Counted from the stretch's first letter, positions 36,013-50,473 are shown. The stretch: DNA of 64,000 nt from Candidatus Woesearchaeota archaeon (GCA_016935985.1 JAFGPW010000002.1:65991-129990); one strand, 5' to 3'. The notes: a model not told the origin generated them from the letters alone. Made by a program: numbers and translations.

Positions 36013-36196
36013 TTTATATACTAGCACCCCCATCACAGCCACCATGCGCATCTTCGACTGGCTCTTCCAGCAGCTCTTCCAGGGCATCTTCCTTCTGAAC
36101 ACCTGCTAGTCCGGGCCCCAGAGCCTCACGACGGTAAGCCTTATCTCCATCACTTTTATATATCCTTCATGAATAATGGGCACGAGGTGGGATACA

Positions 36197-38101
36197 ATGC
36201 CACAGGTCAGCATCACCTTCCAGGACGGATCACAGAAGAAGTACGACGCAGGGATCACGCTCGGCGAGATCGCGAAGGACCAGGAGGGCCGTTTCGGCAA
36301 GACCATCCTTGCGGCGAGCGTGGATGACCATCTCCAGGACCTCTCCAGGACGGTCGAGAAGGACTCTAGCGTCGTCTTCTTGACCTTCGACACCCACGAG
36401 GGCAGGGACGTCTTCAGGCACAGCACCAGCCACATCCTCGCCCAGGCGGTTCTCCGCATCTGGCCTGACGCGAAGCCCACCATCGGCCCGGCGATCGAGG
36501 ACGGGTTCTACTACGACTTCGACATGCCGCCGGTAGGCCCTGAAGACCTGAAGCGGATCGAGAAGGAGATGAGCCGGGTCGTCCAGGAGAAGATCCCGAT
36601 CGAGCGCAAGGAGGTCTCGAAGGCGGACGCGCTCAGGGAGTTCAAGGGAAACGAGTATAAGATCAGGATGATCAAGGAGCTCGATGAGGGGACCATCACG
36701 ATCTACAAGCAGGGCGACTTCTCCGACCTCTGCAGGGGCCCGCACGTCCCGCACACCGGCTATATCAGGTTCTTCGCCCTGACCAAGGTCGCGGGAGCCT
36801 ACTGGCGCGGCGACGCGAAGAACAAGATGCTCCAGAGGATCTACGGCATCTCGTTCCCCGAGAAGGCGCAGCTCGACGAGTACAAGCGGCTCCAGCAGGA
36901 GGCGAGGCAGCGCGACCACCGCAAGATCGGCCGCGAGCTCGACCTCTTCAGCTTCCAGGAGGAGGGGCCCGGTTTCCCGTTCTGGCACCCCGGCGGCATG
37001 GTGCTGCGCAACCAGATCGAGGCGTTCTACCGCAGGCTCCACCACGACCACGGCTATGTCGAGATCAAGACCCCTATCATCCTCTCCCGAACGCTCTGGG
37101 AGAAGTCGGGCCACTGGGACCACTACCGGGAGAACATGTACTTCACGACGATCGACGGGGCGGACTACGCGGTGAAGCCGATGAACTGTCCCGGCGGCGT
37201 GCTCGTCTTCAAGAGCAGGATACGCTCGTACAAGGAGCTCCCCATGAAGGTCGCCGAGTTCGGGCTCGTGCACCGCCACGAGCTCGCGGGTGTGCTCCAC
37301 GGCCTCTTCCGCGTCAGGGTCTTCACCCAGGACGACGCCCATGTCTACTGCCTGCCCGAGCAGCTGAAGGACGAGATAATCAAGGTGATCGACCTCGTCT
37401 TCGAGCTCTACCACGCCTTCGGGTTCGAGGACTTCGACATCGAGCTCTCGACCAGGCCCGAGAAGTCGATAGGGAGCGACGCGATGTGGGAGAACGCGGA
37501 AGGAGCGCTCCGCGACGCCCTCGAGGAGAAGAGGATACCCTATAAGCTCAACCCCGGCGACGGCGCGTTCTACGGCCCGAAGATCGACTTCCACATCAAG
37601 GACTGCATGCGGCGCAGCTGGCAATGCGGCACCATCCAGGTGGATTTCGCGATGCCGGAGACCCTCGACATCACCTACATGGGCGAGGATGGCACCCAGA
37701 ACCATCGCCCGGTCATGATCCACCGCGCCATCATGGGCTCGATCGAGCGGTTCATCGGGATCCTCCTCGAGCATACGGCAGGCAAATTGCCGATGTGGCT
37801 CAGCCCGGTGCAGGTGAAGATCCTCACGGTCTCGGAGAAGTTCACCGATTATGCGAACGGCGTCGCGGCGAAGATGGATGCGGCTGGCCTGCGCGTGCGC
37901 GTGGACGACCGGAACGAGTCGATCGCGAAGAAGGTGCGCGAGGCTCAGCTCCAGAAGGTCAACTACATCCTCGTGGTCGGCGAGAAGGAGCAGAAGGGCG
38001 GGACGGTGGCCGTCCGCACGCGCGCGAACGAGGTCAGGGGCGAGCAGGAGGTCGCGGACTTCATCAGGGACGCGTGCAAGGAGGCGGATTCGAGGGGGTA
38101 G
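36197..38101 (+). CDS. thrS: threonine--tRNA ligase (bacterial-type, TGS + editing + class II catalytic + anticodon-binding)
   Basis: MPQVSITFQDGSQKKYDAGITLGEIA TGS start; HRDLKP; class II motifs. Confidence 0.9.
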   Translation: MPQVSITFQDGSQKKYDAGITLGEIAKDQEGRFGKTILAASVDDHLQDLSRTVEKDSSVVFLTFDTHEGRDVFRHSTSHILAQAVLRIWPDAKPTIGPAIEDGFYYDFDMPPVGPEDLKRIEKEMSRVVQEKIPIERKEVSKADALREFKGNEYKIRMIKELDEGTITIYKQGDFSDLCRGPHVPHTGYIRFFALTKVAGAYWRGDAKNKMLQRIYGISFPEKAQLDEYKRLQQEARQRDHRKIGRELDLFSFQEEGPGFPFWHPGGMVLRNQIEAFYRRLHHDHGYVEIKTPIILSRTLWEKSGHWDHYRENMYFTTIDGADYAVKPMNCPGGVLVFKSRIRSYKELPMKVAEFGLVHRHELAGVLHGLFRVRVFTQDDAHVYCLPEQLKDEIIKVIDLVFELYHAFGFEDFDIELSTRPEKSIGSDAMWENAEGALRDALEEKRIPYKLNPGDGAFYGPKIDFHIKDCMRRSWQCGTIQVDFAMPETLDITYMGEDGTQNHRPVMIHRAIMGSIERFIGILLEHTAGKLPMWLSPVQVKILTVSEKFTDYANGVAAKMDAAGLRVRVDDRNESIAKKVREAQLQKVNYILVVGEKEQKGGTVAVRTRANEVRGEQEVADFIRDACKEADSRG

Positions 38102-38152
38102 GGGCGGATCCTTGCGAACCGTTAAATTCCTGTTATACGAGGGTGAGGAGCG

Positions 38153-38596
38153 TTAGCGACGAGAAGTTGGCGTAGGGCGGGTTTCATAAAATTTTTTGAG
38201 AATATCGTCTAATTTATTCCAATCTTCACCAACAACAATAGGTTTCAAGGCAATTAGTTCTTCTCTATAACTTACTTGCTGTGGGATGTCATTCAATAAA
38301 AAAATCGGGATTTTTCTATAAAATGCCAGGCCCATTTCCAAAAAAGAATTTCCACCAATATATCCTGCAATTCCATTTTTATCATAATTTGCAACATAAA
38401 CGGCATGAGACGAGTCAATTTTTTGGATATGTTCATTGATTAAATCGTATTGAATTTTTGCTAATGAATCTTCACCTAAGTGGTGGAAATCTTTCATGCT
38501 TGGCAATAGAACCTCGTGTCCTATTTCTTCGAGAGATTTTTTTATATCCCACAGCTTCTCAAAAAATTTTGCACTTGAACATAATGTAATTTTCAT
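38153..38596 (-). CDS. nucleoside 2-deoxyribosyltransferase-like / SLOG-fold protein (tentative)
   Basis: 147 aa; MKITLCSSAKFF ... AVYVANYDKNGIAGYIGGNSFLEMGLA resembles the PF05014/PF15891 pattern. Confidence 0.4.
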   Translation of the reverse strand: MKITLCSSAKFFEKLWDIKKSLEEIGHEVLLPSMKDFHHLGEDSLAKIQYDLINEHIQKIDSSHAVYVANYDKNGIAGYIGGNSFLEMGLAFYRKIPIFLLNDIPQQVSYREELIALKPIVVGEDWNKLDDILKKFYETRPTPTSRR

Positions 38597-38654
38597 AATT
38601 ATATTGGAATAAGTATTAGTTTAAATATTTAACCCGCCCGAAGCCAATTACGCC

Positions 38655-38732
38655 TAACATCGCGATTAAGAGAAGTTCGGCGTAGCCGAATTTGGACGGA
38701 GCCTGCAAGGCGGAGTCTCTTAATCGCTGTTA
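38655..38732 (+). repeat. structured repeat copy 1 (TAACATCG-arm-AAGTT hairpin AATTTGG-CCTGCAAGG-arm'-CGCTGTTA)
   Basis: 78 bp; arms CGATTAAGAGA / TCTCTTAATCG complementary; internal hairpin TTCGGC-GTA-GCCGAA. Confidence 0.8.
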
Positions 38733-38961
38733 TGTGGTGAGCCTGTAAGGCGAACGAGGGAGCATAGCGACCGACAGTATGACGCAGACAAAAGATTTAG
38801 AAAAATTTTCCTATTAATATTCCAGCCACAATAAGTAAAGCTGCGATTATTAACAGAATAATCAATAGTGAAAATTTTTTTCGTTTTCTAAGTAATTCTC
38901 CTAACATATTTTTAGTTTATTGATTAGAATATATAAATCTTTTGTCGAGTAATATTGCACA

Positions 38962-39043
38962 TAACATCGGGATTTACCGAAGTTCGCGAAGCGAATTTGG
39001 ACGAAGAAACCTGCAAGGTTTCGTAGTCGGTAAATCGCTGTTA
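38962..39043 (+). repeat. structured repeat copy 2
   Basis: 82 bp; arms GGATTTACCG / CGGTAAATCG (compensatory relative to copy 1); hairpins TTCGC-GAA-GCGAA and GAAACC-TGCAA-GGTTTC. Confidence 0.8.
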
Positions 39044-39123
39044 GTTGCGTCACAAAGTGACCGAGGGATAGTGCAACGATTTTTCACGAAGTGAAAAAAT
39101 CCCGAAGAGTTGAGAAAAGAAAT

Positions 39124-39381
39124 CTAATGTTGTGTTTTAAAGAAATAAGCACTTGCAATACCAAATCCAATTGTTAAAATCCATAAGATTATTGTAACTG
39201 TGCCAGAGCCACCTAGAGGAGACATTAATGCGGCAAAACCAAGAATAAATGTAATAATTGCTAGCACAATTGCCAATGCTCTATGTCCCATAAAACTCCA
39301 AAATGTCATATTACAATATAGATATTGGATTTGGTTTATAAATTTTTCGTCAAGATTTCTTTTTTCAATTGCAACTAACAT
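39124..39381 (-). CDS. small membrane protein (2-3 TM)
   Basis: 85 aa; island codon usage; sits between repeat copies 2 and 3. Confidence 0.4.
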   Translation of the reverse strand: MLVAIEKRNLDEKFINQIQYLYCNMTFWSFMGHRALAIVLAIITFILGFAALMSPLGGSGTVTIILWILTIGFGIASAYFFKTQH

Positions 39382-39451
39382 CGCGATTAAAAAAAGTTCG
39401 CGAAGCGAATTTGGGAAAATCCTGCAAGGATTTTCTTTTTAATCGCTGTTA
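39376..39451 (+). repeat. structured repeat copy 3
   Basis: 76 bp; arms CGATTAAAAA / TTTTTAATCG; hairpins TTCGC-GAA-GCGAA and AAAATCC-TGCAA-GGATTTT. Confidence 0.8.
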
Positions 39452-39546
39452 TACGCCCCGAACAAAATCTTTGATTTTGTGAGAGCCTGCAAGGCGTGGT
39501 CGAGGAGTTTTGAAAAAACTCCGAAGAAGTCGTAAGAGATGCCGTC

Positions 39547-40029
39547 CTATTTGATTAATGAACCCATAACATCTTGGAAAAAAACACTTTCTCCTCTATA
39601 AAGAATTCTCTCTTGTCCTTTGAAATAACTATAATCGCCTTCCATTTCAAAGGTGTATCTAAAATCTCCATCAGAGAATTCTTTAGGTCCTCGAAAAGGC
39701 ACACTATCATCAAAATTCATTAGAGCTTTTTTTAGAAATGGAAATGCTTGTTCTTGGAAAAAAGCGTCATCGAATTTTGGATTATGTTGTCCTTGATATG
39801 CCATGCACCAAATAGGATTTCCTTGGAAGAAAACAACTTCTCTTCCTGGTGCCCATTGGCTTCCTGCATAAGAATCGTGATATCTTAAATCTCCTTCTAC
39901 AAATTCATAATCTTTATGACCTTCTTGAGTGGGCACCTCACACCTATGTTGTTTTCTGACTTCTTTTGGTGCGGCATAAGTATGTCTGTGTGCCTTTGCG
40001 ATAAAATCTAAAAGTGTTTTTTTCTCCAT
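39547..40029 (-). CDS. hypothetical aromatic-rich protein (possibly DUF5680-like)
   Basis: 160 aa. Confidence 0.4.
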   Translation of the reverse strand: MEKKTLLDFIAKAHRHTYAAPKEVRKQHRCEVPTQEGHKDYEFVEGDLRYHDSYAGSQWAPGREVVFFQGNPIWCMAYQGQHNPKFDDAFFQEQAFPFLKKALMNFDDSVPFRGPKEFSDGDFRYTFEMEGDYSYFKGQERILYRGESVFFQDVMGSLIK

Positions 40030-40094
40030 AAATTTAGTAAAATTGGTGAATTAATAAAGCTTTCTTTCGTGTAGGCATCTCTTACGATTGCGTA

Positions 40095-40240
40095 TAACAT
40101 CGCGATTTAAAGAAGTTCAATTCTGACCTCGAGACTCGCCTTGCAGAGGCTCGAGCTGGAAGAATTGAATTTGGGTAAATTTCGGGAAATCGCTTGGCGA
40201 TTTAGCGTAAGCGACCGAAATTTCCTTTAAATCGCTGTTA
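40095..40240 (+). repeat. structured repeat copy 4 (expanded, 146 bp)
   Basis: Arms CGATTTAAAG / CTTTAAATCG; hairpin stem changed to TTCAATTC ... GAATTGAA; extra internal insert. Confidence 0.75.
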
Positions 40241-40385
40241 TATTCTTTGACCCTACGAGTGAAACGGAGTGGGGTCAAATTTCGTCCGAAAAGTCACGAG
40301 AACGCCGTCTTCAAGGGCGAAGCCCTATCTAACATTAACTTAAAGGGAAAGGAAACTTAAATATTGTTTTTTCTATAGAGTAGTA

Positions 40386-40880
40386 ATGTGCGAAAGATTT
40401 AAATATCTTATATTTATTCTATTCTGTATGGACAACATAAATGATAGATGTTATCAAAGTGATTTATCAACATCAGGATTTGATCAAGCAGATGCATTAG
40501 CAATTAATTTTCTAATGGCACAAGGACTGTTTCTAAGAGGTAGGGGTTATACTCCTGCTGAAACAGGTATATATTTAGACGGAAAAAGATTTATTATTGC
40601 AAGAATGGTTGGAAAATCATCACATTTTGGAGCAGGGGGACAATCGCTTGGACTTCCCGATGAAAGAACTGCAAATCCTGAAGATTATGCCGCATTTCTG
40701 GAAATGCTGATGGGCGGAGATGTTAATAAAGCAACTGTTATTACTTCTAGTAAGGATGTAACAGACCAATTACTAAAAGCAGAAGGTTTAACATCCATTA
40801 TTGGTAAACCAGATGGTGCGGTTCCATACATTGAAGCAAAATATTCTGGAAAACAAATTGACATTATTACTGGTCGTTAG
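40386..40880 (+). CDS. hypothetical protein
   Basis: 164 aa, island codon usage. Confidence 0.4.
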   Translation: MCERFKYLIFILFCMDNINDRCYQSDLSTSGFDQADALAINFLMAQGLFLRGRGYTPAETGIYLDGKRFIIARMVGKSSHFGAGGQSLGLPDERTANPEDYAAFLEMLMGGDVNKATVITSSKDVTDQLLKAEGLTSIIGKPDGAVPYIEAKYSGKQIDIITGR

Positions 40881-40924
40881 TTTCCTTTCCCTTTCTAGAA
40901 ATTGGGCGTTCTCGTGATTGAATA

Positions 40925-41009
40925 TAACATCGGGCTTAAGGGAAGTTTTTTGCGTAGCAAAAAATTTGGGAGAGCGAAGTGCAACGAGCGAACCCTTTAA
41001 GCCCTGTTA
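40925..41009 (+). repeat. structured repeat copy 5
   Basis: Arms GGCTTAAGGG / CCCTTTAAGCC; hairpin TTTTTTGC-GTA-GCAAAAAA. Confidence 0.75.
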
Positions 41010-41145
41010 AATCCGCCGACGAACGAAGTGAGGAGAGTGCAACGTGCCCGAGCGGAATGAAATGGAGCGAAGGAGTCGCCAGCAGTATATTTTGTTTTTA
41101 GGGGGTCAGCGCAAATTTTTTGCTTCTTTTTTTGAAAAAAGAAGA

Positions 41146-41733
41146 TTATTGATTTTCCATAATTTCTTGTATGTCCAAATCTAAGTGTCTAAGCAATCTA
41201 GATTCAGAAACTTTTTCTAATCCTCTTTTGATAAGTTCTTGTGCTTCAGAATATTGTTTTCTATAAATATGATGGATTGCCCCCATATAATACGGGCGAT
41301 CCAAATCAGGATTAAGATTTATTGCTTCTTCCAAACTAGATTCTGCACCTTGAAAGTCTCCTAATTTAAACTGAACAGATGAATAATTAGTAAGAACCAT
41401 AGGTCTTCCTGCCCAATCTTCAGGTGCTTCTTCTAAACAGCACCTAAAAAAATAATTCGCTCCTGCAGGTTCGTTTGCTTCAAGGGTCATAGATCCCAAA
41501 TAAAAATTTGCCCAAAAATCATCAACATGATTAATATGGGATTTGATGAAACATCCATATGCTTCAGGATACATCCCTCTCTGAAGAAATATAGCTCCAG
41601 TACCAGTTAAACGAGTAATTCTATCGGCATAAGTTTTTGGATTACTCTCATCAAGATATTCATTTTTCATTTGAACACTCGCTACAAGATGCTTTGCCAA
41701 TATGTCTGTAAGCTTATCTTTTCCCATAATCAA
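41146..41733 (-). CDS. TPR-repeat protein
   Basis: 195 aa; several 34-aa helical repeats (W/LG/Y/A/F/A/P pattern). Confidence 0.55.
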   Translation of the reverse strand: MIMGKDKLTDILAKHLVASVQMKNEYLDESNPKTYADRITRLTGTGAIFLQRGMYPEAYGCFIKSHINHVDDFWANFYLGSMTLEANEPAGANYFFRCCLEEAPEDWAGRPMVLTNYSSVQFKLGDFQGAESSLEEAINLNPDLDRPYYMGAIHHIYRKQYSEAQELIKRGLEKVSESRLLRHLDLDIQEIMENQ

Positions 41734-41814
41734 ATGGTAACGGTTGTTACTATATAAGTATTACTCCCCCCCAATTAGGGAAAAATATATAAATATATAG
41801 GATATTCCATATAT

Positions 41815-42552
41815 ATGATAAAGGAATCGTTAGAAAAAATAGGCTTAACATCCGGAGAAGCTGAAGTATATGAAGCACTGGTTAGCTTAGGCTTATCATC
41901 TACTGGTGCAATTACAAAAAAAGCAGGAATTGCCAGTTCTAAAGTATATGAGGTTCTTCAGAGATTACAAAAAAAAGGTCTTGTTAGTTTTGTGATAAAA
42001 AATGGAGTACAATATTATGATGCAACACCTCCTGAACGATTGCTTGATTTTCTTGAAGAAAAAAAAGAAGATGTAGTAAGGGCTCAAGAAGACATCAAGA
42101 AAATTATTCCTACAATAAAGCAACTTGGAGAGAAAGCAGACGAACATAATGAAACAGTAGTTTATACAGGTATTGAAGGTGCAAAGATTGTTCTTAAGGA
42201 GATATTAGAAGCAGGAAAGAAAGGAATATCTAATTATGGATTCGGGACAAATGTTGATCCTTATGTGGAACAATTGCCTCATGCTCTTAATAATTATATT
42301 CAAGAGGCAAAAAAACTAAAGTTTAAAACAAGATTAATTTTTGCTAAAGGATTCAAATCTTCAAATATAACAGCAGAAATTAGATTTCTCTCAACGGAAT
42401 ATTTACCTCCTGTTAGAACAATGATTTATGGACATAAAGTTGCGATAGTTGATTTCACAAAGCCAGTTACAACAATTATTATTCATAAAAGAGAAATTGC
42501 GGAATCATATAAAAAACACTTTGAACAATTATGGAAAATCGCAAAAAAATAA
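41815..42552 (+). CDS. TrmB family transcriptional regulator
   Basis: N-terminal HTH LTSGEAEVYEALVSLGLSSTGAITKKAGIASSKVYEVLQRLQKKGLV; 245 aa. Confidence 0.8.
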   Translation: MIKESLEKIGLTSGEAEVYEALVSLGLSSTGAITKKAGIASSKVYEVLQRLQKKGLVSFVIKNGVQYYDATPPERLLDFLEEKKEDVVRAQEDIKKIIPTIKQLGEKADEHNETVVYTGIEGAKIVLKEILEAGKKGISNYGFGTNVDPYVEQLPHALNNYIQEAKKLKFKTRLIFAKGFKSSNITAEIRFLSTEYLPPVRTMIYGHKVAIVDFTKPVTTIIIHKREIAESYKKHFEQLWKIAKK

Positions 42553-42639
42553 ATCTCTGAAACGAAGTTTCAGACTATCTGTTTTCTGAAAGAAAACCGC
42601 GCTGACCCCCTTTCTATAAATAATGCTGGTGATTGGATT

Positions 42640-42749
42640 TAACATCGGGCTTAAGGGAAGTTTTTTCCGCAGGAAAAAATTTGGGAGAGAAACGAATTTT
42701 GCTTGGCAAAATAGCGAAGCGGTCGTTTCGAACCCTTTAAGCCCTGTTA
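42640..42749 (+). repeat. structured repeat copy 6
   Basis: Same arms as copy 5; hairpin TTTTTTCC-GCA-GGAAAAAA (compensatory GC to CC/GG change relative to copy 5). Confidence 0.75.
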
Positions 42750-42815
42750 AATACGTTTTCCGTTACGAGCGAAGCGGAGTTCGGAAAACCTGCGTCCGCA
42801 GAGTAAAATTTCCAT

Positions 42816-42862
42816 TTAAAAATAAATTCGACCACAGGGAGTGTATATGTGCGAAGCACTGG
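42816..42862 (+). repeat. direct repeat DR-A (TTAAAAATAAATT-N15-TATATGTGCGAAGCACTGG)
   Basis: 37/47 identical to DR-B at 49492-49537. Followed by three GGGGAGTTCC 10-mers at 42861, 42916, 42967 and a ~55 bp degenerate tandem repeat x3. Confidence 0.7.
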
Positions 42863-43038
42863 GGAGTTCCGTTCCTTAGAAAGAGCGAATGCGACACATC
42901 AAGAACAAGTATCTAGGGGAGTTCTTTTTTCATCAAAGCCGAAGGCTCATCAAGTAAAAACATCTAGGGGGAGTTCCGTTCAATACAAGCGAACAAAGTG
43001 AGCCATCAAGAACAAGGTTATAGGGGCGAGAAAACCAA

Positions 43039-43073
43039 AACATTTATTAACATTTGATAACATTTGTGATAAT
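43039..43073 (+). promoter_or_regulatory. three 10-bp-phased iterons AACATTT(A/G)NN upstream of the RHH gene (candidate operator)
   Basis: AACATTTATT AACATTTGAT AACATTTGTG, 12-45 nt upstream of the ATG. Confidence 0.4.
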
Positions 43074-43084
43074 AGGGGGTAGCT

Positions 43085-43222
43085 ATGAAACCAAAAAACG
43101 TTACACTACACTTAAATTCAGATTTGTACGAGAAATATAAAGAATTTTGCAAGAGAAAAGGCTGGCTTGTATCTAGACAAGTTGAGCTTATGATGGAAAA
43201 GCAGATGAAGGGAGACATATAA
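43085..43222 (+). CDS. ribbon-helix-helix (CopG/Arc-like) small DNA-binding protein, 45 aa
   Basis: Not in the track. MKPKNVTLHLNSDLYEKYKEFCKRKGWLVSRQVELMMEKQM is a beta-strand then helix-helix pattern. Stops 1 nt before the next gene. Confidence 0.5.
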   Translation: MKPKNVTLHLNSDLYEKYKEFCKRKGWLVSRQVELMMEKQMKGDI

Positions 43223-43223
43223 A

Positions 43224-43961
43224 ATGGTATCATTCAAACTTGCAGCTATAAAAATTCTGAGAGAAGCAAAAGAACCTTTGCACTATGAAGAGATCACTAA
43301 AAGGGCATTAGAGAATAACATGATTGAGACTTCTGGAGCTACACCTGAATCAACCATGAATGCTCAGATTGCTGTTGACATTAAATCAAAGAAAGGAGAA
43401 TCTCCTTTTGTACGGGTTAAACCTGGTTATTTCGGACTAAATCCTAATTTTACTGAAAAGGAAGAGAAAGAAGAAGAAAAAGAAGAAGAAGTAAAAGAAG
43501 CAGAAATTCAAGAGAATATAAGCACACAATACGTAGGTAAAGCAGGAGAGCATCGGGTTGTCAGTGAGTTATTATTCAGAGGATTTAATGCAAGTATTAT
43601 GGGTGTTGATGAAGGGATTGATATTGTTGCTACAAAAGAAAGAAGTCTCTATAATATACAAGTAAAAACCTCAAACGAGAACAAATTCAATTATTATGTT
43701 TTTGATTTGCGTATAAGCAGTTTTGAGAAATATAATAGAAATAATACTTTCTATGTATTTGTTCTTAAAGGAGAAAAGGTTAATTTTCTCATATTACCTT
43801 ACTTTGAAATTCAGAAAAATGTTGATCAAAAAAATATTCTTGTTGTAAATAAAAGTACACGATATCGAATTAACATTAGGATACGTGATGGAAAATTGTA
43901 TTTAGGAAATAAGGAGAATGAAATGTCATACTTTATGAATAATTGGGAGTTAGTTAAATGA
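43224..43961 (+). CDS. HARE-HTH + PD-(D/E)xK (Mrr-like) restriction endonuclease-like protein
   Basis: N-terminal AAIKILREAKEPLHYEEITKRALENNMIETSGATPESTMNAQIAVDIK (HARE-HTH). C-terminal EHRVVSELLF ... GVDEGIDIVATKE ... IQVKTS nuclease core. Confidence 0.6.
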   Translation: MVSFKLAAIKILREAKEPLHYEEITKRALENNMIETSGATPESTMNAQIAVDIKSKKGESPFVRVKPGYFGLNPNFTEKEEKEEEKEEEVKEAEIQENISTQYVGKAGEHRVVSELLFRGFNASIMGVDEGIDIVATKERSLYNIQVKTSNENKFNYYVFDLRISSFEKYNRNNTFYVFVLKGEKVNFLILPYFEIQKNVDQKNILVVNKSTRYRINIRIRDGKLYLGNKENEMSYFMNNWELVK

Positions 43962-44605
43962 ATCAGACAAAATCAAGGCAAAGAGTTATTGATCATGGAG
44001 AAGTCTTTACCCATGAAAGAGAAGTAAATGGAATGCTTGATCTTGTTAAAAATGAAACTGAAAGATTAGATTCTCGATTTTTAGAGCCTGCGTGTGGAAC
44101 GGGTAATTTCTTAATTGAAGTATTGAACAGAAAACTCATGGTTCTTAAGAAAAAATATAGTCGTAGTCAACCAGAATATGAAAAATATGGTATAGTTGTT
44201 GTTTCAAGCTTATATGGTATTGATTTACTTGAAGACAACGTACAGGAATGTAGGCAAAGATTAATTGACACATTGGAAAAAGAATATACCTCTATTTTCA
44301 AACATAAATTTAATCAAAAGTATGTAGAAGTTTTAAGGTTCATCTTAAGCAAGAATATTGTCTCAGGAGATGCGCTGACAATGAAAAATACTAAAGGAAA
44401 GCCACTCATTTTTTCTGAATGGTCAATGCCTTATAATGATTCTAAAATTAAAAGGAAAGAATATTCATTTAAGGATATATTTAGCCCCACTCTTTTATGG
44501 AGTTTTACTACTGATAGCGATACAGGAGAAAGAGTAATATTACCCAACGTATATAAGGATCATCCCCTCATGAACTATATGGAGTTAGTAAACAAAAATG
44601 GATGA
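43958..44605 (+). CDS. truncated gamma-class N6-adenine MTase paralog (motif X + canonical motif I, no NPPY)
   Basis: GEVFTHEREVNGMLDLV ... LEPACGTGNFLIEVL; 215 aa. Confidence 0.55.
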   Translation: MNQTKSRQRVIDHGEVFTHEREVNGMLDLVKNETERLDSRFLEPACGTGNFLIEVLNRKLMVLKKKYSRSQPEYEKYGIVVVSSLYGIDLLEDNVQECRQRLIDTLEKEYTSIFKHKFNQKYVEVLRFILSKNIVSGDALTMKNTKGKPLIFSEWSMPYNDSKIKRKEYSFKDIFSPTLLWSFTTDSDTGERVILPNVYKDHPLMNYMELVNKNG

Positions 44606-45068
44606 AGAATTTGACATAGAAGGTGTAATTTATCCGGTGCCTTACGATTTAGCTATGAATATTTTTAAAAAAAATAAAAAAATTTTTGTTAAATATTTGA
44701 CACACGAGCCTACAAAAAAAACAGTAGTTCGTCTTAAGAAAGGGATGAAGTTGTATATCTATTCTTCACAATCCAAAAAGGTTATTCTCGGTGAAGGAGT
44801 TATTGATGAAATATCTTTTTTGAACAGATCAGAAATCTTATCAAAATTTGATGACGAGCTATTCATTTCGGAGTCAGAGTTAAGGGACTACTCGAAGGGG
44901 AGAGAAAGTAAGAAGGCCCAAGTGTTAAAAATTAAGAATATTGTTCTGTATCCCAAAGGGAAGATTGTTAAAAGAGCAATAACTATGACCGGTATATATG
45001 TAACTGGACAAAATAAAAAAAGCATTTTTGGGAATCAGAAAAACATCAATGGAGTTAACAAAAAATGA
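44598..45068 (+). CDS. PUA/ASCH-like beta-barrel domain protein (tentative)
   Basis: 156 aa; MKLYIYSSQSKKVILGEGVIDEISFL; embedded in the RM operon with 8-nt and 4-nt overlaps. Confidence 0.35.
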   Translation: MDEEFDIEGVIYPVPYDLAMNIFKKNKKIFVKYLTHEPTKKTVVRLKKGMKLYIYSSQSKKVILGEGVIDEISFLNRSEILSKFDDELFISESELRDYSKGRESKKAQVLKIKNIVLYPKGKIVKRAITMTGIYVTGQNKKSIFGNQKNINGVNKK

Positions 45069-46621
45069 ATAAAACGGATTACAATCCAGATATATTAAGT
45101 TGTCTAGCAAGTTTAAGCAACGATGAAGTATTTACACCTCCTAAAATAGTTAATGAAATGCTAGATTTGTTACCTCCCGAATTATGGAAAGATAAGAATG
45201 CAAGATTTTTAGATCCTGTGTCTAAAACAGGGATTTATCTGAGAGAGATAGCAAAGAGACTAATGAAAGGTTTGGAAAAACAGATTCCCAATAGGCAAAA
45301 AAGGGTAAATCATATCCTTACCAATCAACTTTATGGGGTAGCAATAACAGAGTTAACATCCTATGTCTCTAGGAGATCATTGTATTGTTCAAAAACTGCT
45401 AATGGAAACTACTCTGTTTCTACAGAGTTCAAGAATAAAGAAGGGAATATAAGATTCAAAAATATTAATCACGAGTGGGTAAATGGAGGCTGCATATTTT
45501 GCGGTGCAAGTAAGGAAGTTTATGATCGTGGAGACGAAATGGAGTCACACGCTTATGAGTTTATCCATACAGAAAAACCGGAGGAGATATTCAAAATGAA
45601 ATTCGATGTAATTTTAGGAAATCCACCTTATCAGTTAAGTGATGAGGGTCACGGAAGAAGTGCTAGACCTGTTTATCATAAGTTTGTTCAACAAGCGAAA
45701 AAACTAAACCCTCGGTTTTTGACAATGATCATACCTGCACGCTGGTATGCAGGAGGAAAGGGACTTGATGAATTCAGGTCAGAGATGTTGAATGATAAAC
45801 GAATTCGCAACCTTGTCGATTTTGAAAATTCACGTGATGTTTTTCCTGGTGTTGATGTGGCAGGAGGAATATGTTATTTTTTATGGGATAGAGATAATAA
45901 AGGATCATGTGAGATAAAGAGTTTATACAACGGAGCAGAGGTAAAATCTGTAAGAGCTTTGGACGAATTTTCAATTTTTGTAAGACAAGGTCAAGCAATA
46001 CCAATTATTAGAAAAATAGAAGCAGTAAAAGAAAATAATGGAAAACGACTGAGTGATGTTGTATCCTCAAGAAAACCATTTGGATTACCAACAAATTATG
46101 AACCCAAAGAGAAAGGAGTGCCTTGCTGGTTTATTCAGAGGGTAGGATTGAAATATGCTGATAAACGAGATATAATGGATCCTAATAAATTATTAAACAA
46201 ATGGAAATTTCTAGTACCCAAAGCACCTATCGCTGGTCAGACTGATTTTTCTAAACCTGTAGGATTTTATTATGATGGAAATACTAAAATTGCAAAACCA
46301 GGTGAATGTTGTACTGAATCATTTATCGTTGCTGGAGCATTTAATACAGAGGAAGAAGTAATTTCTTTCAAATCTTATTTATTTACCAAAATTGTGAGGT
46401 TCTTAATACTTCAGACAGTTATTTCGCAAGATGTAACGAAAAATAACTTTTCTTTCGTACCTGATTTAGGTAAATATAAAGGAAAATACACTGACGAATT
46501 ATTGAGGAAACGTTGGAATATAACTGATAGTGAATGGAACTATATTGATTCAAGAATAAGATCAGTTGATTCTATAAATAATAAAAATCACTATGAGGAA
46601 ATCCCTGATGACGATGAATAA
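45065..46621 (+). CDS. gamma-class N6-adenine DNA methyltransferase with C-terminal target-recognition region (Eco57I/TaqI-like M)
   Basis: Motif X DEVFTPPKIVNEMLDLL, degenerate motif I LDPVSKTGIYL, motif IV ILGNPPYQ, Cys-containing insert (GGCIFCG), ~330-aa C-terminal TRD. Confidence 0.8.
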   Translation: MNKTDYNPDILSCLASLSNDEVFTPPKIVNEMLDLLPPELWKDKNARFLDPVSKTGIYLREIAKRLMKGLEKQIPNRQKRVNHILTNQLYGVAITELTSYVSRRSLYCSKTANGNYSVSTEFKNKEGNIRFKNINHEWVNGGCIFCGASKEVYDRGDEMESHAYEFIHTEKPEEIFKMKFDVILGNPPYQLSDEGHGRSARPVYHKFVQQAKKLNPRFLTMIIPARWYAGGKGLDEFRSEMLNDKRIRNLVDFENSRDVFPGVDVAGGICYFLWDRDNKGSCEIKSLYNGAEVKSVRALDEFSIFVRQGQAIPIIRKIEAVKENNGKRLSDVVSSRKPFGLPTNYEPKEKGVPCWFIQRVGLKYADKRDIMDPNKLLNKWKFLVPKAPIAGQTDFSKPVGFYYDGNTKIAKPGECCTESFIVAGAFNTEEEVISFKSYLFTKIVRFLILQTVISQDVTKNNFSFVPDLGKYKGKYTDELLRKRWNITDSEWNYIDSRIRSVDSINNKNHYEEIPDDDE

Positions 46622-49133
46622 AAACTTTTTTCCGAAGAAGCCTGATGTAAGTCCACTTATTTATGCTTATGAACTTGAAGGTGTTGAAACGCATAAAGGA
46701 CTATTAAAAGTAGGATATACTACGCGGACATCTAAAGATAGGGTAAAGGAGCAATTAAAAACTAGTCGTGTAAAGTATAAAATAGTATTTGAAGAATCTG
46801 CCATGAGAAAAGACGGCACTTATTTTGATGATCACGCAGTCCATAAACTTTTGCTCAAGAAAGGAATTAAGCGAAAAAGTGGAGAATGGTTTGCTTGTTC
46901 TATTAAGGAAGTAAAAGCTGTCGTTTTAGCCTTGAAAACAGGAATAATAAATGAAGATAATAGGACATTGAATTTCAAAATGAGGCCTGAACAAGCTGAG
47001 GCAGTAAAAAGAGCGTCTCATTATTTTTCTAGTTTTAAAGAAGAGAAAAAAACACCTCATTTCCTTTGGAATTGTAAGATGAGATTTGGTAAAACTTTTG
47101 CGGCTTATCAATTAGCAAAAAAAATGGGATGGAAAAGGATTCTTGTGCTAACATTTAAACCTGCGGTTGAAAGTGCTTGGGAAGATGACTTATTAAATCA
47201 TGTTGATTTTGAGGGATGGCAATTTTATTCTAGACATTCAGATATAAATTCAAGCAAATTGAAAAAAAAGAAACCTATAGTTTGTTTTGGTTCTTTTCAG
47301 GATTATTTAGGTAAAGATTCTCTTGGTAGGATTAAGACAAAAAATGAATGGGTTCATAAAATTAAATGGGATTGTATTATCTTTGATGAGTATCATTTTG
47401 GTGCGTGGAGGGAATCAGCAAAAAGCCTATTTGACGAGGAAAATGAGATTCTTGTTGAGCAGAAAGAATATGAAGAAGAGATGGTTCAAGGTCCTGAAGA
47501 GCAAGATAAAATTGATTATTTAGAAAGTGCGATGCCTATAAAGACAAGATTATATCTTTATTTATCTGGGACTCCATTTAGAGCAATAATTTCAGGAGAA
47601 TTTATAGAAGAACAAATTTATCATTGGACTTATTCCGATGAGCAAAGAGCCAAAGAAAATTGGAAAAAAGCTAAGAATCCTTATGAGTCTTTACCTAGGA
47701 TAGTATTGCTAACCTATCAATTACCAGATTCAATAATAAACATTGCGAGCGGAGGAGAATTTGATACTTTTGATCTAAATGTCTTTTTTTCTGCTAAAGG
47801 TGAAGGCAAAGATGCAAAATTTGTATATGAAGACGATGTCCAAAAATGGCTTGATTTGATTCGAGGCAACTATTTAGCGTCAAATTTGGATAATTTAAAA
47901 CTGGGTGCTAAAAAACCCCCTCTTCCTTATTCCGATGTTAGATTATTGAATATATTATCTCACACACTTTGGTTTTTGCCGCATGTTAATTCATGCCATG
48001 CTATGGATAATTTATTGATGCAGAAGCAAAATAAATACTATCACTATTACAATATTGTAGTCGCAGCAGGTGCAACAGCAGGAATAGGACTAGATGCTCT
48101 CAAACCTGTACAAAAGGCAATGGAAGAGCCATTAAAAAGTAAATCGATTACCTTAACATGTGGAAAACTAACTACTGGAGTTACTGTAAGACCTTGGGCA
48201 GGTATTTTCATGCTTAGAAATCTAAAAAGCCCAGAAACATATTTTCAAGCAGCATTTAGAGTTCAATCCCCTTGGACTGTAAAAAATCCAGATGGAAAAA
48301 CTCCTAACTCTGAAGAAATCATAAAGAGAGAATGTTACATTTTTGACTTTGCTCCAAATAGAGCATTAAAACAGATTGCAGACTACAGTTGTAATCTTGA
48401 TATTGATGAAACAGATTCTGAGAAGAAAATTAAGGAGTTTATTGATTTTCTGCCCGTGTTAGCTTTCGATGGAAGTCGTATGGAAGTATTAGATGCTGGT
48501 AAAATTATTGAAATGGCAATGAGCGGAACTACTGCTTCACTTTTGGCAAGACGGTGGGAAAGTGCTCTACTCGTTAATGTTGATAACCACACTTTAAGTA
48601 AAATTCTGAATAATCCAAAAGCCCTAGAAGCTCTAATGAGTATTGAAGGTTTTAGAAGTTTGAATAGTGATATTGAGCTTATTATAAACAAGTCAGAATC
48701 GGTCAAAAAGACTAAGCAAAAATTAGCAAATGAAGAAGATATTCCACCTAAGCTAAAGAAAAAACTGACTGAAGAAGAAAAGGAATATATGAGTAAAAGG
48801 AAGGAGATTCAGAAGAAATTAATCAAATTTGCAACAAGGATACCTATTTTTATGTATTTAACAGATTACAGGGAAAGAACATTGAAAGATATAATAACAA
48901 AATTAGAACCTGGTTTGTTCAAAAAAGTTACAGGATTAAAGGTTGAAGATTTTGAGTTATTAGTAAGCCTAGGAGTATTCAATAGTAATTTGATGAATGA
49001 TGCAGTATTCAAGTTCAAGAGATATGAAGAAGCAAGTTTGTCGTACACAGGAATATATAAACATAAAGTCGAACAAGTGGGGGGATATGACATAGTTGTG
49101 ACTGCTGAAGAATTCACTGAAAAGGTAAAATGA
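46608..49133 (+). CDS. T5orf172 (GIY-YIG superfamily) nuclease - SF2 (ResIII-like, DExH) helicase fusion; restriction/effector subunit
   Basis: N-terminus LIYAYELEGVETHKGLLKVGYTTRTSKDRVKEQ ... GEWF. Helicase motifs FGKTFAAYQ (I), CIIFDEYHFG (II), LSGTPF (III), QAAFRVQSPW (VI). Start at an internal Met (ATGA overlap with the MTase). Confidence 0.8.
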   Translation: MTMNKNFFPKKPDVSPLIYAYELEGVETHKGLLKVGYTTRTSKDRVKEQLKTSRVKYKIVFEESAMRKDGTYFDDHAVHKLLLKKGIKRKSGEWFACSIKEVKAVVLALKTGIINEDNRTLNFKMRPEQAEAVKRASHYFSSFKEEKKTPHFLWNCKMRFGKTFAAYQLAKKMGWKRILVLTFKPAVESAWEDDLLNHVDFEGWQFYSRHSDINSSKLKKKKPIVCFGSFQDYLGKDSLGRIKTKNEWVHKIKWDCIIFDEYHFGAWRESAKSLFDEENEILVEQKEYEEEMVQGPEEQDKIDYLESAMPIKTRLYLYLSGTPFRAIISGEFIEEQIYHWTYSDEQRAKENWKKAKNPYESLPRIVLLTYQLPDSIINIASGGEFDTFDLNVFFSAKGEGKDAKFVYEDDVQKWLDLIRGNYLASNLDNLKLGAKKPPLPYSDVRLLNILSHTLWFLPHVNSCHAMDNLLMQKQNKYYHYYNIVVAAGATAGIGLDALKPVQKAMEEPLKSKSITLTCGKLTTGVTVRPWAGIFMLRNLKSPETYFQAAFRVQSPWTVKNPDGKTPNSEEIIKRECYIFDFAPNRALKQIADYSCNLDIDETDSEKKIKEFIDFLPVLAFDGSRMEVLDAGKIIEMAMSGTTASLLARRWESALLVNVDNHTLSKILNNPKALEALMSIEGFRSLNSDIELIINKSESVKKTKQKLANEEDIPPKLKKKLTEEEKEYMSKRKEIQKKLIKFATRIPIFMYLTDYRERTLKDIITKLEPGLFKKVTGLKVEDFELLVSLGVFNSNLMNDAVFKFKRYEEASLSYTGIYKHKVEQVGGYDIVVTAEEFTEKVK

Positions 49134-49384
49134 TTGGCAAGCTTCTTGATCCTAAGGCTATAATCGGAACTATCTCGTTTGTTTTTATCATGGTTGTTCT
49201 TTTTATGATGCTTGACGGAATACAAGATAGTCCTTTAGCTGAGAACGAACAGGCAAATAAGACTATTCAAGAAACGAAAGAATCTTTATCTATCTTGACT
49301 AATGGTTATTTTCTTGCTGGAAGCATAGCAAGTGCAATAGCATTGATAGGCTTCTTCATCTGGTTATATCATAGATACAGTTAG
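49130..49384 (+). CDS. small membrane protein (2 TM), last gene of the RM-like operon
   Basis: 84 aa; start overlaps the helicase stop (ATGA). Confidence 0.5.
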   Translation: MIGKLLDPKAIIGTISFVFIMVVLFMMLDGIQDSPLAENEQANKTIQETKESLSILTNGYFLAGSIASAIALIGFFIWLYHRYS

Positions 49385-49491
49385 TTTTCTCGTCCCCTTC
49401 TAAAAAATATGAATTTTCGAGCAACAAAGTTGCGAGCGTAGATGTCCGTCAGGACTAAGGAACTCCCCCCTTAAATTAAAGAACTCCCCTA

Positions 49492-49537
49492 TTAAAAATA
49501 AATTTCTCCGAAGGAGACTATATGTGCGTAGCACTGG
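49492..49537 (+). repeat. direct repeat DR-B (TTAAAAATAAATT-N14-TATATGTGCGTAGCACTGG)
   Basis: Flanked by three GGAACTCCCC 10-mers (49459, 49480, 49536) that are the inverse of those next to DR-A. Confidence 0.7.
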
Positions 49538-49651
49538 AACTCCCCAACTTTACCGTCAAAGAAATGGAAATTTTATTGTATTTAACACGTATTAAGCGTA
49601 CTTTTTCGCGCCGAACAGGGATTTCCGGCGTCTTCACGAAAAGGCGTATAA

Positions 49652-50473
49652 ATGCCCGCTGTCCCCCGTGTCCGGATGGGGTATGAGAGGATTGTGACAG
49701 ACGAGTGCAGGTTCAGGGGCTATTCGCCGAGGACGATAAAGGCATACCTGCATCACGTCAAGAGGTTCGTGGCGTCCGGGATGCCGCCGAGGGAGTACCT
49801 CCTCATGCTCATCGGGAACGGCGCCTCTGACGAGACGGTGAGGTCCGCGGGCTTCGCCGTCAGGTTCTATCTCGCGGCTGCGGGGAAGGGCCGCCCGGAG
49901 GCCGGAACGGTCCTTGCCGCCCTGCCGAACGTCAAGCGCGGGAAGAGGCTTCCGGTGATACTCTCCAAGGAGGAGGTGGGGCGGCTGGTATCGGCCTCCA
50001 GCAACGCCAACCACCGGCTGATCATGCAGGTAGGTTATTCTGCCGGCCTGCGGGTCAGCGAGATAGTGAACCTCCGCTGGCAGGACGTCGATCTCGGCAG
50101 GGACGTGATCCATGTGAAGCGCGCCAAAGGGAAGAAGGACCGGATCGTCATGCTCTCTTCGAAAGTCAAGGAAGGCCTGCTGGGCCTCGCGCCTGGCAGG
50201 GAAGGGCCTGTCTTCCTCACGAACAGGGGCGGAAGGTACTCACCAAGGACGATACAGAAGATCATAGCGGATGCGGCAGCGAAGGCAGGCATACGGAAGA
50301 GGATAACCCCGCACACCCTGCGGCATTCCTTCGCGACGCATCTCCTGGAGAACGGGACAGACCTGCGGCACATCAGGGACCTGCTGGGACATTCTGACCT
50401 GCGCACGACCATGGTCTATACGAACGTGTCGAACAGGACCATCCGCGGCATCAGGAGCCCGCTGGACGACTGA
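49652..50473 (+). CDS. tyrosine site-specific recombinase (XerC/XerD/XerA-like)
   Basis: R..HTLRHSFATHLLENGTDLRHIRDLLGHSDLRTTMVYTNV catalytic box II with Tyr; C-terminal IRSPLD; host-like high GC; no IntI-specific insertion. Confidence 0.85.
   Translation: MPAVPRVRMGYERIVTDECRFRGYSPRTIKAYLHHVKRFVASGMPPREYLLMLIGNGASDETVRSAGFAVRFYLAAAGKGRPEAGTVLAALPNVKRGKRLPVILSKEEVGRLVSASSNANHRLIMQVGYSAGLRVSEIVNLRWQDVDLGRDVIHVKRAKGKKDRIVMLSSKVKEGLLGLAPGREGPVFLTNRGGRYSPRTIQKIIADAAAKAGIRKRITPHTLRHSFATHLLENGTDLRHIRDLLGHSDLRTTMVYTNVSNRTIRGIRSPLDD

Follow-up and report, generated by a model that had tools for sequence, protein, structure and literature searches.

Integrons are defined in practice by an integrase that carries an extra domain and by attC sites detected with a single covariance model. 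The IntI-specific additional domain, ~35-45 aa around patch III, is needed for activity (Messier & Roy 2001, cited in PMC9668308), and IntegronFinder uses it as a criterion. Among 6718 archaeal genomes Ghaly et al. (2022; PMC9668308), in the kind of survey that applies these two criteria, reported only six IntIs, all carrying the additional domain, these falling among 75 genomes in which most arrays are CALINs (clusters of attC sites lacking integron-integrases), and Woesearchaeales genomes with attC sites and no IntI are listed in the same study. Here we describe a 64,000-nucleotide stretch of DNA from Candidatus Woesearchaeota archaeon (GCA_016935985.1 JAFGPW010000002.1:65991-129990; hereafter the window), in which six folded repeats at 38655-42749 and a tyrosine recombinase gene at 49652-50473 very probably make up, on the minus strand, an integron of the sedentary chromosomal type in a member of the Woesearchaeota (DPANN), with that gene as its integrase. 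The locus is an integron by the functional definition, having a divergent recombinase, an attI site and an array of mobile cassettes with G|TT boundaries, and it departs from the canonical family in two defining respects, having neither the IntI additional domain nor attC sites with the canonical features and model. Beyond the single locus we lean, though by no means firmly, towards a distinct and widespread DPANN integron lineage with a compact XerA-like integrase and attC sites that are folded mimics of dif with a bulged spacer.

In the canonical attC the bottom strand is the more stable and is purine-rich, there are extrahelical bases on the arm opposite AAC, and the central spacer is unpaired (Nivina et al. 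2016, PMC5027507). The dif site of Pyrococcus abyssi is ATTGGATATAA-TCGGCC-TTATATCTAAA, and dif in the Thermococcales is one double-stranded site away from xerA (Cortez et al. 2010, PMC2958812). The recombinase described here may be likened to the 'Integron-like' subgroup of simple tyrosine recombinases of Smyshlyaev et al. (2021, PMC8138268), and a 2026 permafrost study (PMC13323075) finds that 97.4% of contigs with integron-type recombinases have no IntegronFinder integron, novel attC sites being one suggested reason. The sites and cassettes of insertion-less members were not identified in either study, whereas at the present locus an attI, an attC family and mobile cassettes can be defined. 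The searchable literature on DPANN or Woesearchaeota integrons, archaeal integrons, and XerA with cassettes gave no account of this system. A further comparison is offered by CTX phage, which Val and co-workers reportedly showed in 2005 to integrate through XerCD by way of a folded single-stranded DNA (ssDNA) hairpin that mimics dif; one strand pair is said to be exchanged, with replication resolving the junction, and the elements can reportedly stack.

A family of imperfect palindromes with covarying stems

A first-pass annotation of the window described six elements of 76-146 bp in the same orientation, and all six imperfect palindromes lie where it placed them: attC1 at 38655..38732, attC2 at 38962..39043, attC3 at 39376..39451, attC4, the longest and with a branched centre, at 40095..40240, attC5 at 40925..41009, and attC6 at 42640..42749, all with their top strand on the minus strand of the window and numbered here as copies 1 to 6. 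AAC and GTT are conserved at the ends, as in integrons. The left end, TAACATCG, is invariant as proposed; it occurs seven times in the window against 1.2 expected, and the seventh occurrence (47933, minus strand) lies within a gene and has no support from the covariance model. The right end was thought to be equally constant, but it is CGCTGTTA in four copies and CCCTGTTA in copies 5 and 6, and a hairpin centred on CCTGCAAGG, described as usually present, is restricted to copies 1-3.

All six copies fold, on either strand taken as ssDNA, into an outer 5-bp stem (TAACA/TGTTA) followed by a bulge of 2 nt, which reads TC on the plus and GA on the minus strand, a second stem of 10-12 bp and a branched centre with two to three hairpins in total, of which one or two are variable and the other belongs to an invariant AAGTT-hairpin-AATTTGG module. 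The z-scores of these folds range from -2.8 to -9 over both strands and all copies, and the stem-hairpin architecture and the preserved bulge are thus as the first-pass annotation had drawn them. Its suggestion that the stems change in sequence while staying complementary also holds: in a 16-member alignment of window copies and related contigs, for which the structure was specified by us, 93.4% of cells pair, versus 32-47% in controls in which the pairing partners were slid by 1-3 columns, and 14 of the 25 pairs show changes on both sides. With 49 distinct members, in an alignment that was collected by and fitted to a covariance model and is biased towards that structure, 93.0% of cells pair and 20 of 25 pairs vary on both sides. 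In the inner hairpin of attC3, a compensatory change between the window copy and its counterparts on three contigs from other metagenomes (L001-L003) accounts for four mismatches.

Searched against the 64 kb, a covariance model built from the family, which we call R1, recovers precisely the six copies, with scores of 65-88 bits, and gives no other match. The individual scores are 75.2, 70.8, 81.6, 65.5, 87.8 and 71.6 bits for attC1 to attC6 (E = 6.6e-13 for attC6), and copy 4 is recovered at its 65.5 bits despite having been left out of the building set. As in sedentary chromosomal integrons, the sites are homogeneous within the array. A motif scan of IMG/VR viral contigs gave four pattern matches, none of which was confirmed by the covariance model, and these are attributed to chance.

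The two strands are not equivalent. The bottom strand, which is the plus strand of the window, is the more stable in 51 of 52 elements, by a mean of 2.1 kcal/mol, and is purine-rich, with a positive GC skew in 50 of 52; one position, a G.T wobble when the bottom strand folds and an A.C mismatch when the top strand does, is invariant in the 16 aligned members. In these properties, as in the branched variable centre and the R''-L''...L'-R' layout, the elements resemble canonical attC sites. They differ in the placement of unpaired bases: there are no conserved extrahelical bases opposite AAC (one additional T is found on that arm in copies 5 and 6 only), and the sole conserved unpaired bases are a bulge of 2-3 nt on the AAC arm, two nt past the cleavage point and within the spacer, the rest of which is paired rather than open. 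The CCAAATT-hairpin-AACTT module, moreover, is invariant in this family.

Two to three extra short GC-rich hairpins (for example GCCTGTAAGGC, TTTTCACGAAGTGAAAA and GGAGTTTTGAAAAAACTCC) lie between each gene and its attC, at 38733-38790, 39044-39120, 39452-39545, 40241-40340, 41010-41110 and 42750-42800. On visual inspection, most loops in these hairpins and in those of the attC sites have the sequence G-N-A on the plus (bottom) strand, and our reading of the folds, made without a tally, is that many bottom-strand hairpins have C-GNA-G-type triloops, which are typical of very stable DNA mini-hairpins.

Cassette movement and the polarity of the array

The most direct evidence for the nature of these elements comes from the gene between attC3 and attC4 (39547-40029, minus strand), which encodes a 160-aa DUF5680 protein that is 100% identical on L001-L003. 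The similarity extends over a 719-bp segment, 39379-40097, with 4-6 mismatches in 718 bases (99.2-99.4%; 98.9-99.2% in slightly longer BLAST alignments). In all four contexts it begins after the G of ...ATG|TTATAC... and stops at the G of ...AATCGCGATG|TT..., and on both sides the flanks past G|TT are unrelated. On L001 and L002 the segment stands first at attI, beside a divergent tyrosine recombinase of 267-269 aa that is 40-43% identical to that of the window, and on L003 it comes after another element of the repeat family. This is cassette mobility with boundaries at GTT, with the same G|TT crossover as in integrons. Together with the covariation, it supports the proposal that the elements are attC-like sites of a non-canonical archaeal cassette system. 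The L003 array also holds a DDE_3-family transposase gene (2372-3394) of an insertion sequence, which is placed after an apparent attC first arm (TATAACAAAGGTTAAGCAG) and may have interrupted that site.

The cassette junctions in these shared contexts show that the top strand of the array is the minus strand of the window: the integrase is upstream and divergent, followed by attI and then by seven cassettes, each opening with TTAnnnnCAAT and closed by an attC-type element in the manner of an integron array, so that an element terminates, at the 3' end, the cassette to its right in window coordinates. The first-pass annotation, which implied the opposite polarity and took each element to follow its own gene, had this assignment reversed, and its rule of one short gene per element gives way to a cassette with two genes (cassette 2) and a 6.9-kb multi-gene module (cassette 1). 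An arrangement in which the plus strand would be the top strand, attI would be the half-site at 38115-38141 and the integrase would be expected to the left was also considered and is overturned by the cassette junctions and the related loci. That half-site is a truncated seventh attC at the distal end of the array (38115..38141, minus strand) and consists of the first arm alone (TATAACAGGAATTTAACGGTTCG on the minus strand). It adjoins the stop codon of thrS, is 70% identical to the arms of copies 5 and 6, and has the arm that also opens complete attC sites on L002 and L112; R1 gives no match there.

The attI site occupies 49575..49602 on the minus strand, ~90 nt upstream of the integrase start, and reads ACGCTTAA-TACGTG|TTAAATACAAT on that strand, with the crossover between 49586 (C) and 49585 (A) in plus-strand coordinates; the GC content switches exactly at this site. 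Its core is kept upstream of related integrases, as TTTAATAGGTG|TT on L137, TTTAATAGATG|TTA on L139, CTTAATAGGTG|TTA on L002 and AAAATACGTG|TTA on L004. Across 47 distinct junctions the consensus is (C/T)TTAAT-C(G/C)C-GATG|TTAnnnnCAAT.

Several observations concern the attI region itself. The contigs L136 (Logan SRR13394437) and L138 stop at attI or at most ~30 nt from it, and short-read contigs with these integrases (L136, L138, L140 and L141) very often stop at or just past this point, which is only suggestive of population heterogeneity. In the sample that holds the window integrase, the cassette with the tetratricopeptide repeat (TPR) and TrmB genes (cassette 2) is present as a separate contig, L135. 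Both the contig ends and this separate contig would fit branching of the assembly graph at the recombination sites, either repeat-induced or population-level. Loci with an attI region of the L001 type (L055-L119, ~70-115 nt upstream of the integrase start) contain a perfect 11-6-11 palindrome, GATTATCAATA-N6-TATTGATAATC, which immediately precedes TTATG|TT, lies downstream of a TTATATAAAT box and is shaped like dif; it could be a binding site for the integrase or for a regulator.

Integron cassettes have 5' ends that are complementary to their own attC, a pairing that circularisation of a cassette would demand, and the same is seen here. The 5' end TTAnnnnn is complementary to the first arm nnnnnTAA of the cognate attC in six of the seven window cassettes. 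For the five cassettes that lie between attC sites the match is perfect in four and extends to 4/5 variable positions in one: the pairs include TTAAATCC with GGATTTAA at the attC start for cassette 2, TTATATTC with GAATATAA for cassette 3 and TTAGTTGC with GCAACTAA for cassette 5, each at 5/5 variable positions, and TTATGTGC with CCACATAA for cassette 6, at 4/5. The large first block is a single cassette, because its 5' end TTAAATAC pairs perfectly with GTATTTAA, with which attC6 begins. When all loci are pooled, a match to the cognate attC at 4/5 positions or more is found for 13 of 23 cassettes, versus 10% of non-cognate pairs.

The junctions also bear on the fall-back readings of the first-pass annotation, a noncoding RNA (ncRNA) or a repetitive extragenic palindrome (REP) or bacterial interspersed mosaic element (BIME), to which the junctions, the orientation and the confinement to the array lend no support. 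That the palindromes are structured ncRNAs, terminators or insulators between genes would account for their stable folds and strong covariation, and the G.T position would be a G.U in a plus-strand RNA. However, no Rfam family reaches its gathering score anywhere in the window, the orientation of the elements tracks the integrase and not the flanking genes, which lie on both strands, the homology between contexts breaks within the element at G|TT, and the C-GNA-G-type triloops read by eye on the bottom strand are a mark of very stable DNA mini-hairpins. We regard this explanation as very improbable. A miniature inverted-repeat transposable element (MITE), or a selfish repeat of the REP/BIME kind that is intergenic by chance, would likewise be short, palindromic, intergenic and present in several copies, but the copies are limited to one 4-kb stretch of the 64-kb window, are extensively diverged while keeping their pairing rather than being identical, show no target-site duplications on reading the sequence, and move as one unit with the adjacent gene; this we find barely credible.

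A compact recombinase and its related loci

The recombinase gene (49652..50473, plus strand) lies 6.9 kb from the repeats and is transcribed away from the array. Its product is an Xer-like tyrosine recombinase, 273 aa long if translation begins at the first ATG and 265 aa long in the NCBI call, which begins at 49676. The 265-aa form matches, at 100% identity, an NCBI protein that carries the label Candidatus Woesearchaeota archaeon, in line with the archaeal host that had been supposed, and an exact-protein look-up of the form beginning at the first ATG returned no record, the shorter start being the only one recorded. The 120 closest homologues share 58-69% identity and are 251-306 aa in length, several of them labelled Woesearchaeota or Nanoarchaeia.

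The protein matches Pfam Phage_integrase (PF00589) at E = 2e-41 and has the catalytic tyrosine-recombinase core and an IntI-like tail (G-x-x-S-P-L). The best NCBIfam models are XerA_Arch (NF040815; 196.7 bits, cutoff 220) and the integron integrase TIGR02249 (183.1 bits in two stretches, cutoff 265), and PRK15417 scores 127 bits against a cutoff of 435. The best PDB sequence matches are the XerA structures 4a8e / 5hxy (P. abyssi 136 bits, T. acidophilum 129 bits). The match to VchIntIA (2a3v, 116 bits) falls in separate pieces in which query residues 174-197 face chain residues 175-243, and therefore ~45 residues of the IntI-specific domain, present in integron integrases, are absent. Unlike XerA, whose alignments end earlier, the protein has a C-terminal tail (G-I-R-S-P-L-D) that aligns with that of IntI4, residues 198-272 corresponding to 244-318 (of 320). 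The first-pass annotation had recorded a recombinase some 7 kb away without the IntI insertion; the lack of the insertion stands, and a role as the cognate integrase had escaped it.

When metagenomes were scanned with the L001 recombinase, 80 loci were obtained. In these R1 finds 43 elements, every one of which lies on the strand opposite to the recombinase gene and upstream of it, with none in 293 kb downstream, nearly double the amount of upstream DNA searched. At least one element is present in 15 of the 21 loci that have at least 2 kb of upstream sequence, and the arrays reach four elements. The attI sequence TATTGATAATCTTATG is common to 29 loci, and among the 22 different sequences that come after it all but one, 21 in number, show the cassette-start signature TTnnnnnNAAT; with the DUF5680 cassette in its four contexts, these 29 attI sites and 22 first cassettes match the prediction of gene-plus-repeat units bounded at GTT.

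Closer relatives of the window recombinase have the same organization. L137 has a 7-kb type I restriction-modification (R-M) block between attI and its first attC, and L139 has a hydrolase cassette; on the other side of the recombinase gene these window-type relatives have the archaeal housekeeping genes for PheRS, the mevalonate pathway and ribosomal protein L34e. The 7-kb cassette of L137 was considered as a second case of mobility, by comparison with the first cassette of L080, and was rejected, the two sharing only a 100-nt leader at 85% identity. A search of genome contigs with the window integrase yielded a single relevant relative, L004, from a metagenome-assembled genome labelled Thermoplasmata (45% identity), whose contig stops 306 nt upstream of the gene so that attI alone is visible; the other 50 loci from this search are ordinary bacterial Xer-like genes.

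These data allow a more conventional reading to be weighed, in which the array is a CALIN of canonical attC sites served in trans by a classical IntI elsewhere, the short recombinase being the host XerA. Most reported archaeal integrons are indeed CALINs, and the same survey (PMC9668308) lists Woesearchaeales that have attC sites and lack IntI; AAC...GTT is a canonical feature, as is the crossover at G|TT, and the best PDB matches of the recombinase are XerA. Against this, all 43 elements at the related loci are upstream and on the opposite strand, with none downstream, a conserved attI lies directly upstream of the recombinase gene with many different first cassettes, and the cassette start TTAnnnnCAAT, which is the R' arm of these sites, fits a XerA-type arm and not the canonical GTTRRRY. 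Further, a proxy for the canonical model (R2), run with filters off, gives no match at E <= 10 to any of the six elements, R2 being small, built from 10 sequences (aadA7 and nine archaeal attC sites that IntI1 recombines; Ghaly Data S9), and different from IntegronFinder's own model. We consider this reading improbable.

The interpretation of the locus as an integron with its own integrase has points that weigh against it as well, among them the small size and distinctness of R2 just given. The XerA models score the recombinase almost like the integron-integrase models do, and it could be the chromosome-dimer resolvase of the cell, in which case the array might lie beside it because of an insertion at a dif-like site; that it is the cognate, correctly placed integrase of the array is inferred, as is its catalytic role. 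A classical IntI may lie elsewhere in the genome, our view being of 64 kb. In other loci 10 of 23 cassettes match their own attC at no more than 3/5 positions, which may reflect missed attC sites or cassette fusions, and in the window the 5' end of cassette 7 does not match the truncated attC. No circular cassette junction was seen, the logic of a circular cassette being drawn from end complementarity.

A proposed mechanism of recombination

In size and two-domain build the recombinase is like XerA, and the sites have ATTGnnnnTAA-type 11-bp arms and a 6-bp spacer as in dif; the 11-bp arm TTAnnnnCAAT fits the pattern of the P. abyssi arm ATTGGATATAA. Unlike dif in the Thermococcales, the site here adjoins the recombinase gene, takes cassette insertions, and has folded hairpins as its apparent partners. 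We propose that the bottom strand of an element (the window plus strand) would fold to a hairpin whose stem offers two recombinase-binding arms, R (ATTGnnnnTAA) and L (TTAA...), and that the 2-nt bulge would be extruded to leave a 6-bp central region between them. This arm-6 bp-arm geometry would mimic the double-stranded attI and resemble archaeal dif. The integrase would then cut at TAA|C in the bottom strand, the counterpart of G|TT in the top strand, and exchange the bottom strand only, and replication would resolve the junction, as in bacterial integrons and CTX-phage integration by XerCD; recombination of attC with attC would excise a circular cassette, and that of attI with attC would insert one.

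Two features of the sites speak to this proposal. The spacer at the right end of attC measures 8 bp when the site is taken as double-stranded DNA, and in the hairpin with the GA/TC bulge out the spacer is 6 bp, as in attI (TACGTG) and dif, from which we infer that only the folded form gives the right geometry. The central regions of attI (TACGTG) and attC (TCGCGATG) also differ and are not swapped in the products, and therefore the crossover takes place on one side of the spacer only, which points to bottom-strand cleavage at the junction of R arm and spacer (TAA|C) and, by extension, to a probable single-strand mechanism.

Recombination between double-stranded Xer/dif sites, with small elements stacking at a dif-like site by way of no folded intermediate and the palindromes serving some other purpose, would be a simpler scheme, and the right end of each element together with the start of the next cassette does form an arm-spacer-arm site, attI being dif-like too. 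It is at odds with the spacers, which are 8 bp in attC versus 6 bp in attI and differ in sequence without being exchanged; with the left arm, which covaries with the right arm over 49 distinct elements, as only the folded form explains; and with the strand asymmetry in stability (51/52) and the invariant G.T/A.C position. We therefore hold this scheme to be quite improbable.

Single-strand exchange by a Xer recombinase on a folded ssDNA hairpin would make the proposed process similar to CTX integration by XerCD. The CTX element, in contrast, is a replicating phage genome and not a promoter-plus-gene cassette, and it has neither a dozens-strong array of interchangeable cassettes nor a dedicated recombinase gene at the site.

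Cassette cargo and genomic setting

The seven cassettes all read on the minus strand and, as in integrons, are rich in defence genes and genes of unknown function. Cassette 1 (42643..49585, 6943 bp), which ends in attC6, is an R-M-like defence module with genes for a ribbon-helix-helix (RHH) protein, a HARE-HTH/PD-(D/E)XK protein, methyltransferase parts, a DUF365 protein, an Eco57I-type methylase, a T5orf172+ResIII helicase and an 84-aa membrane protein; PADLOC reports matches to type II and IIG methyltransferases and nucleases, and there are Pfam matches too. The methyltransferase looks split over 43958-46621, into a 215-aa N-terminal methyltransferase-like open reading frame (ORF) and the 518-aa Eco57I-type methylase, with the 156-aa DUF365 gene between the parts and with overlapping stops and starts. 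Towards one end of the cassette (42861-43026) there are three ~55-bp direct repeats opening GGGGAGTTC(C), and at the opposite end (49461-49545) three inverted copies (GAACTCCCC); both ends have a directly repeated TTAAAAATAAATT-N-TATATGTGCG(A/T)AGCACTGG with the look of an archaeal promoter. These terminal repeats could be regulator-binding sites or part of the bracketing repeats described below.

Cassette 2 (40928..42642, 1715 bp) has a divergent pair of genes identified by Pfam, for a TPR protein (41146-41733, minus strand) and a TrmB-family regulator (41815-42552, plus strand), and is also found as the isolated 1615-bp contig L135 from run SRR13394437. Cassette 3 (40098..40927, 830 bp) encodes a 164-aa protein without known function (40386-40880, plus strand), cassette 4 (39379..40097, 719 bp) is the DUF5680 cassette, cassette 5 (38965..39378, 414 bp) has a small ORF (39124-39381, minus strand) that encodes no more than 85 aa, and cassette 6 (38658..38964, 307 bp) an ORF of ~35 aa. 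The last, cassette 7 (38142..38657), encodes a 147-aa protein (38153-38596, minus strand) with a weak Pfam match, below cutoff, to nucleoside 2-deoxyribosyltransferase (E = 0.0085).

Bacterial cassettes are mostly promoterless. Those described here, by eye, seem to carry their own archaeal TATA/BRE-like promoter near the start codon, which would give leaderless transcripts; a box of this kind, AAAGCTTTATTAATTC on the minus strand at 40048-40063, lies ~20-30 nt upstream of the DUF5680 start at 40029. They also differ from integron cassettes in having inverted repeats that bracket the gene, for which we know of no counterpart in bacterial integron cassettes. Such a repeat, of 13-22 nt, is found in every window cassette, its score being reached by 0 of 50 shuffles in each: at 42804-42817/49562-49575 in cassette 1 (14 nt), 41151-41164/42527-42540 in cassette 2, 40342-40357/40879-40894 in cassette 3, 39530-39543/40074-40087 in cassette 4, 39110-39125/39353-39368 in cassette 5, 38787-38799/38934-38946 in cassette 6, and 38167-38188/38626-38647 in cassette 7, the top-scoring pair falling just within the ORF ends in cassettes 2 and 7. 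Bracketing repeats are also present in 13 of 19 cassettes of other loci, often directly after TTAnnnnCAAT. As a hypothesis only, they might loop out the gene in ssDNA and so juxtapose the neighbouring attC sites. More extensive complementarity between the ends of the 6.9-kb cassette was looked for and rejected, gapped local alignment giving separate 14-nt segments and overall no better a result than shuffles.

The array is set apart from its surroundings by composition. The window has a GC content of ~62%, and an 11.5-kb tract from 38.1 to 49.6 kb has one of ~35%, flanked by thrS (36176-38101, stop codon 38099-38101), its left neighbour, and on the other side by the recombinase gene, whose GC content is host-like and unlike that of the array. 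L137 is similar, with an array of ~32% GC versus ~47% downstream of the integrase. A chimeric assembly is unlikely to lie behind the GC jump, because host-type DNA brackets the island and both of its edges are functional sites, attI and the truncated attC; the similar arrangement on L137 also speaks against it. The cassette pool seems to be AT-rich regardless of host GC, and AT-rich arrays in hosts of very different GC suggest a shared pool and recent transfer among Woesearchaeota. There are no tRNA genes in the window, and therefore the island is not tRNA-targeted. An imperfect GC-rich hairpin, GGATTCGAGGGGGTAGGGGCGGATCC, at 38065-38110 overlaps the thrS stop and adjoins the truncated last attC, and may be the thrS terminator or a piece of a deletion junction; an exact-protein look-up of the ThrRS returned no record.

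Implications

If this interpretation is correct, the additional domain and the canonical extrahelical bases would be dispensable for single-strand, structure-specific cassette recombination, and current tools would miss a class of integrons that is apparently common in DPANN archaea, dozens of loci having come from a single scan. It would then explain part of the integron-type recombinases without detectable attC sites and part of the archaeal CALINs. The system would be either a living intermediate between Xer/dif and integrons or an independent parallel to one, and the proposed origin of IntI from Xer would gain a candidate intermediate that has dif-like sites and can be tested. Direct biochemistry is feasible, given the small size and clear definition of both the enzyme and its sites.

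The gene-bracketing inverted repeats would likewise be a new device for joining neighbouring attC sites in excision. AT-rich cassettes, whole R-M systems included, would be shared across archaea of 33% to 62% GC, and such cassette sharing would provide a concrete route of gene flow among reduced-genome symbionts.

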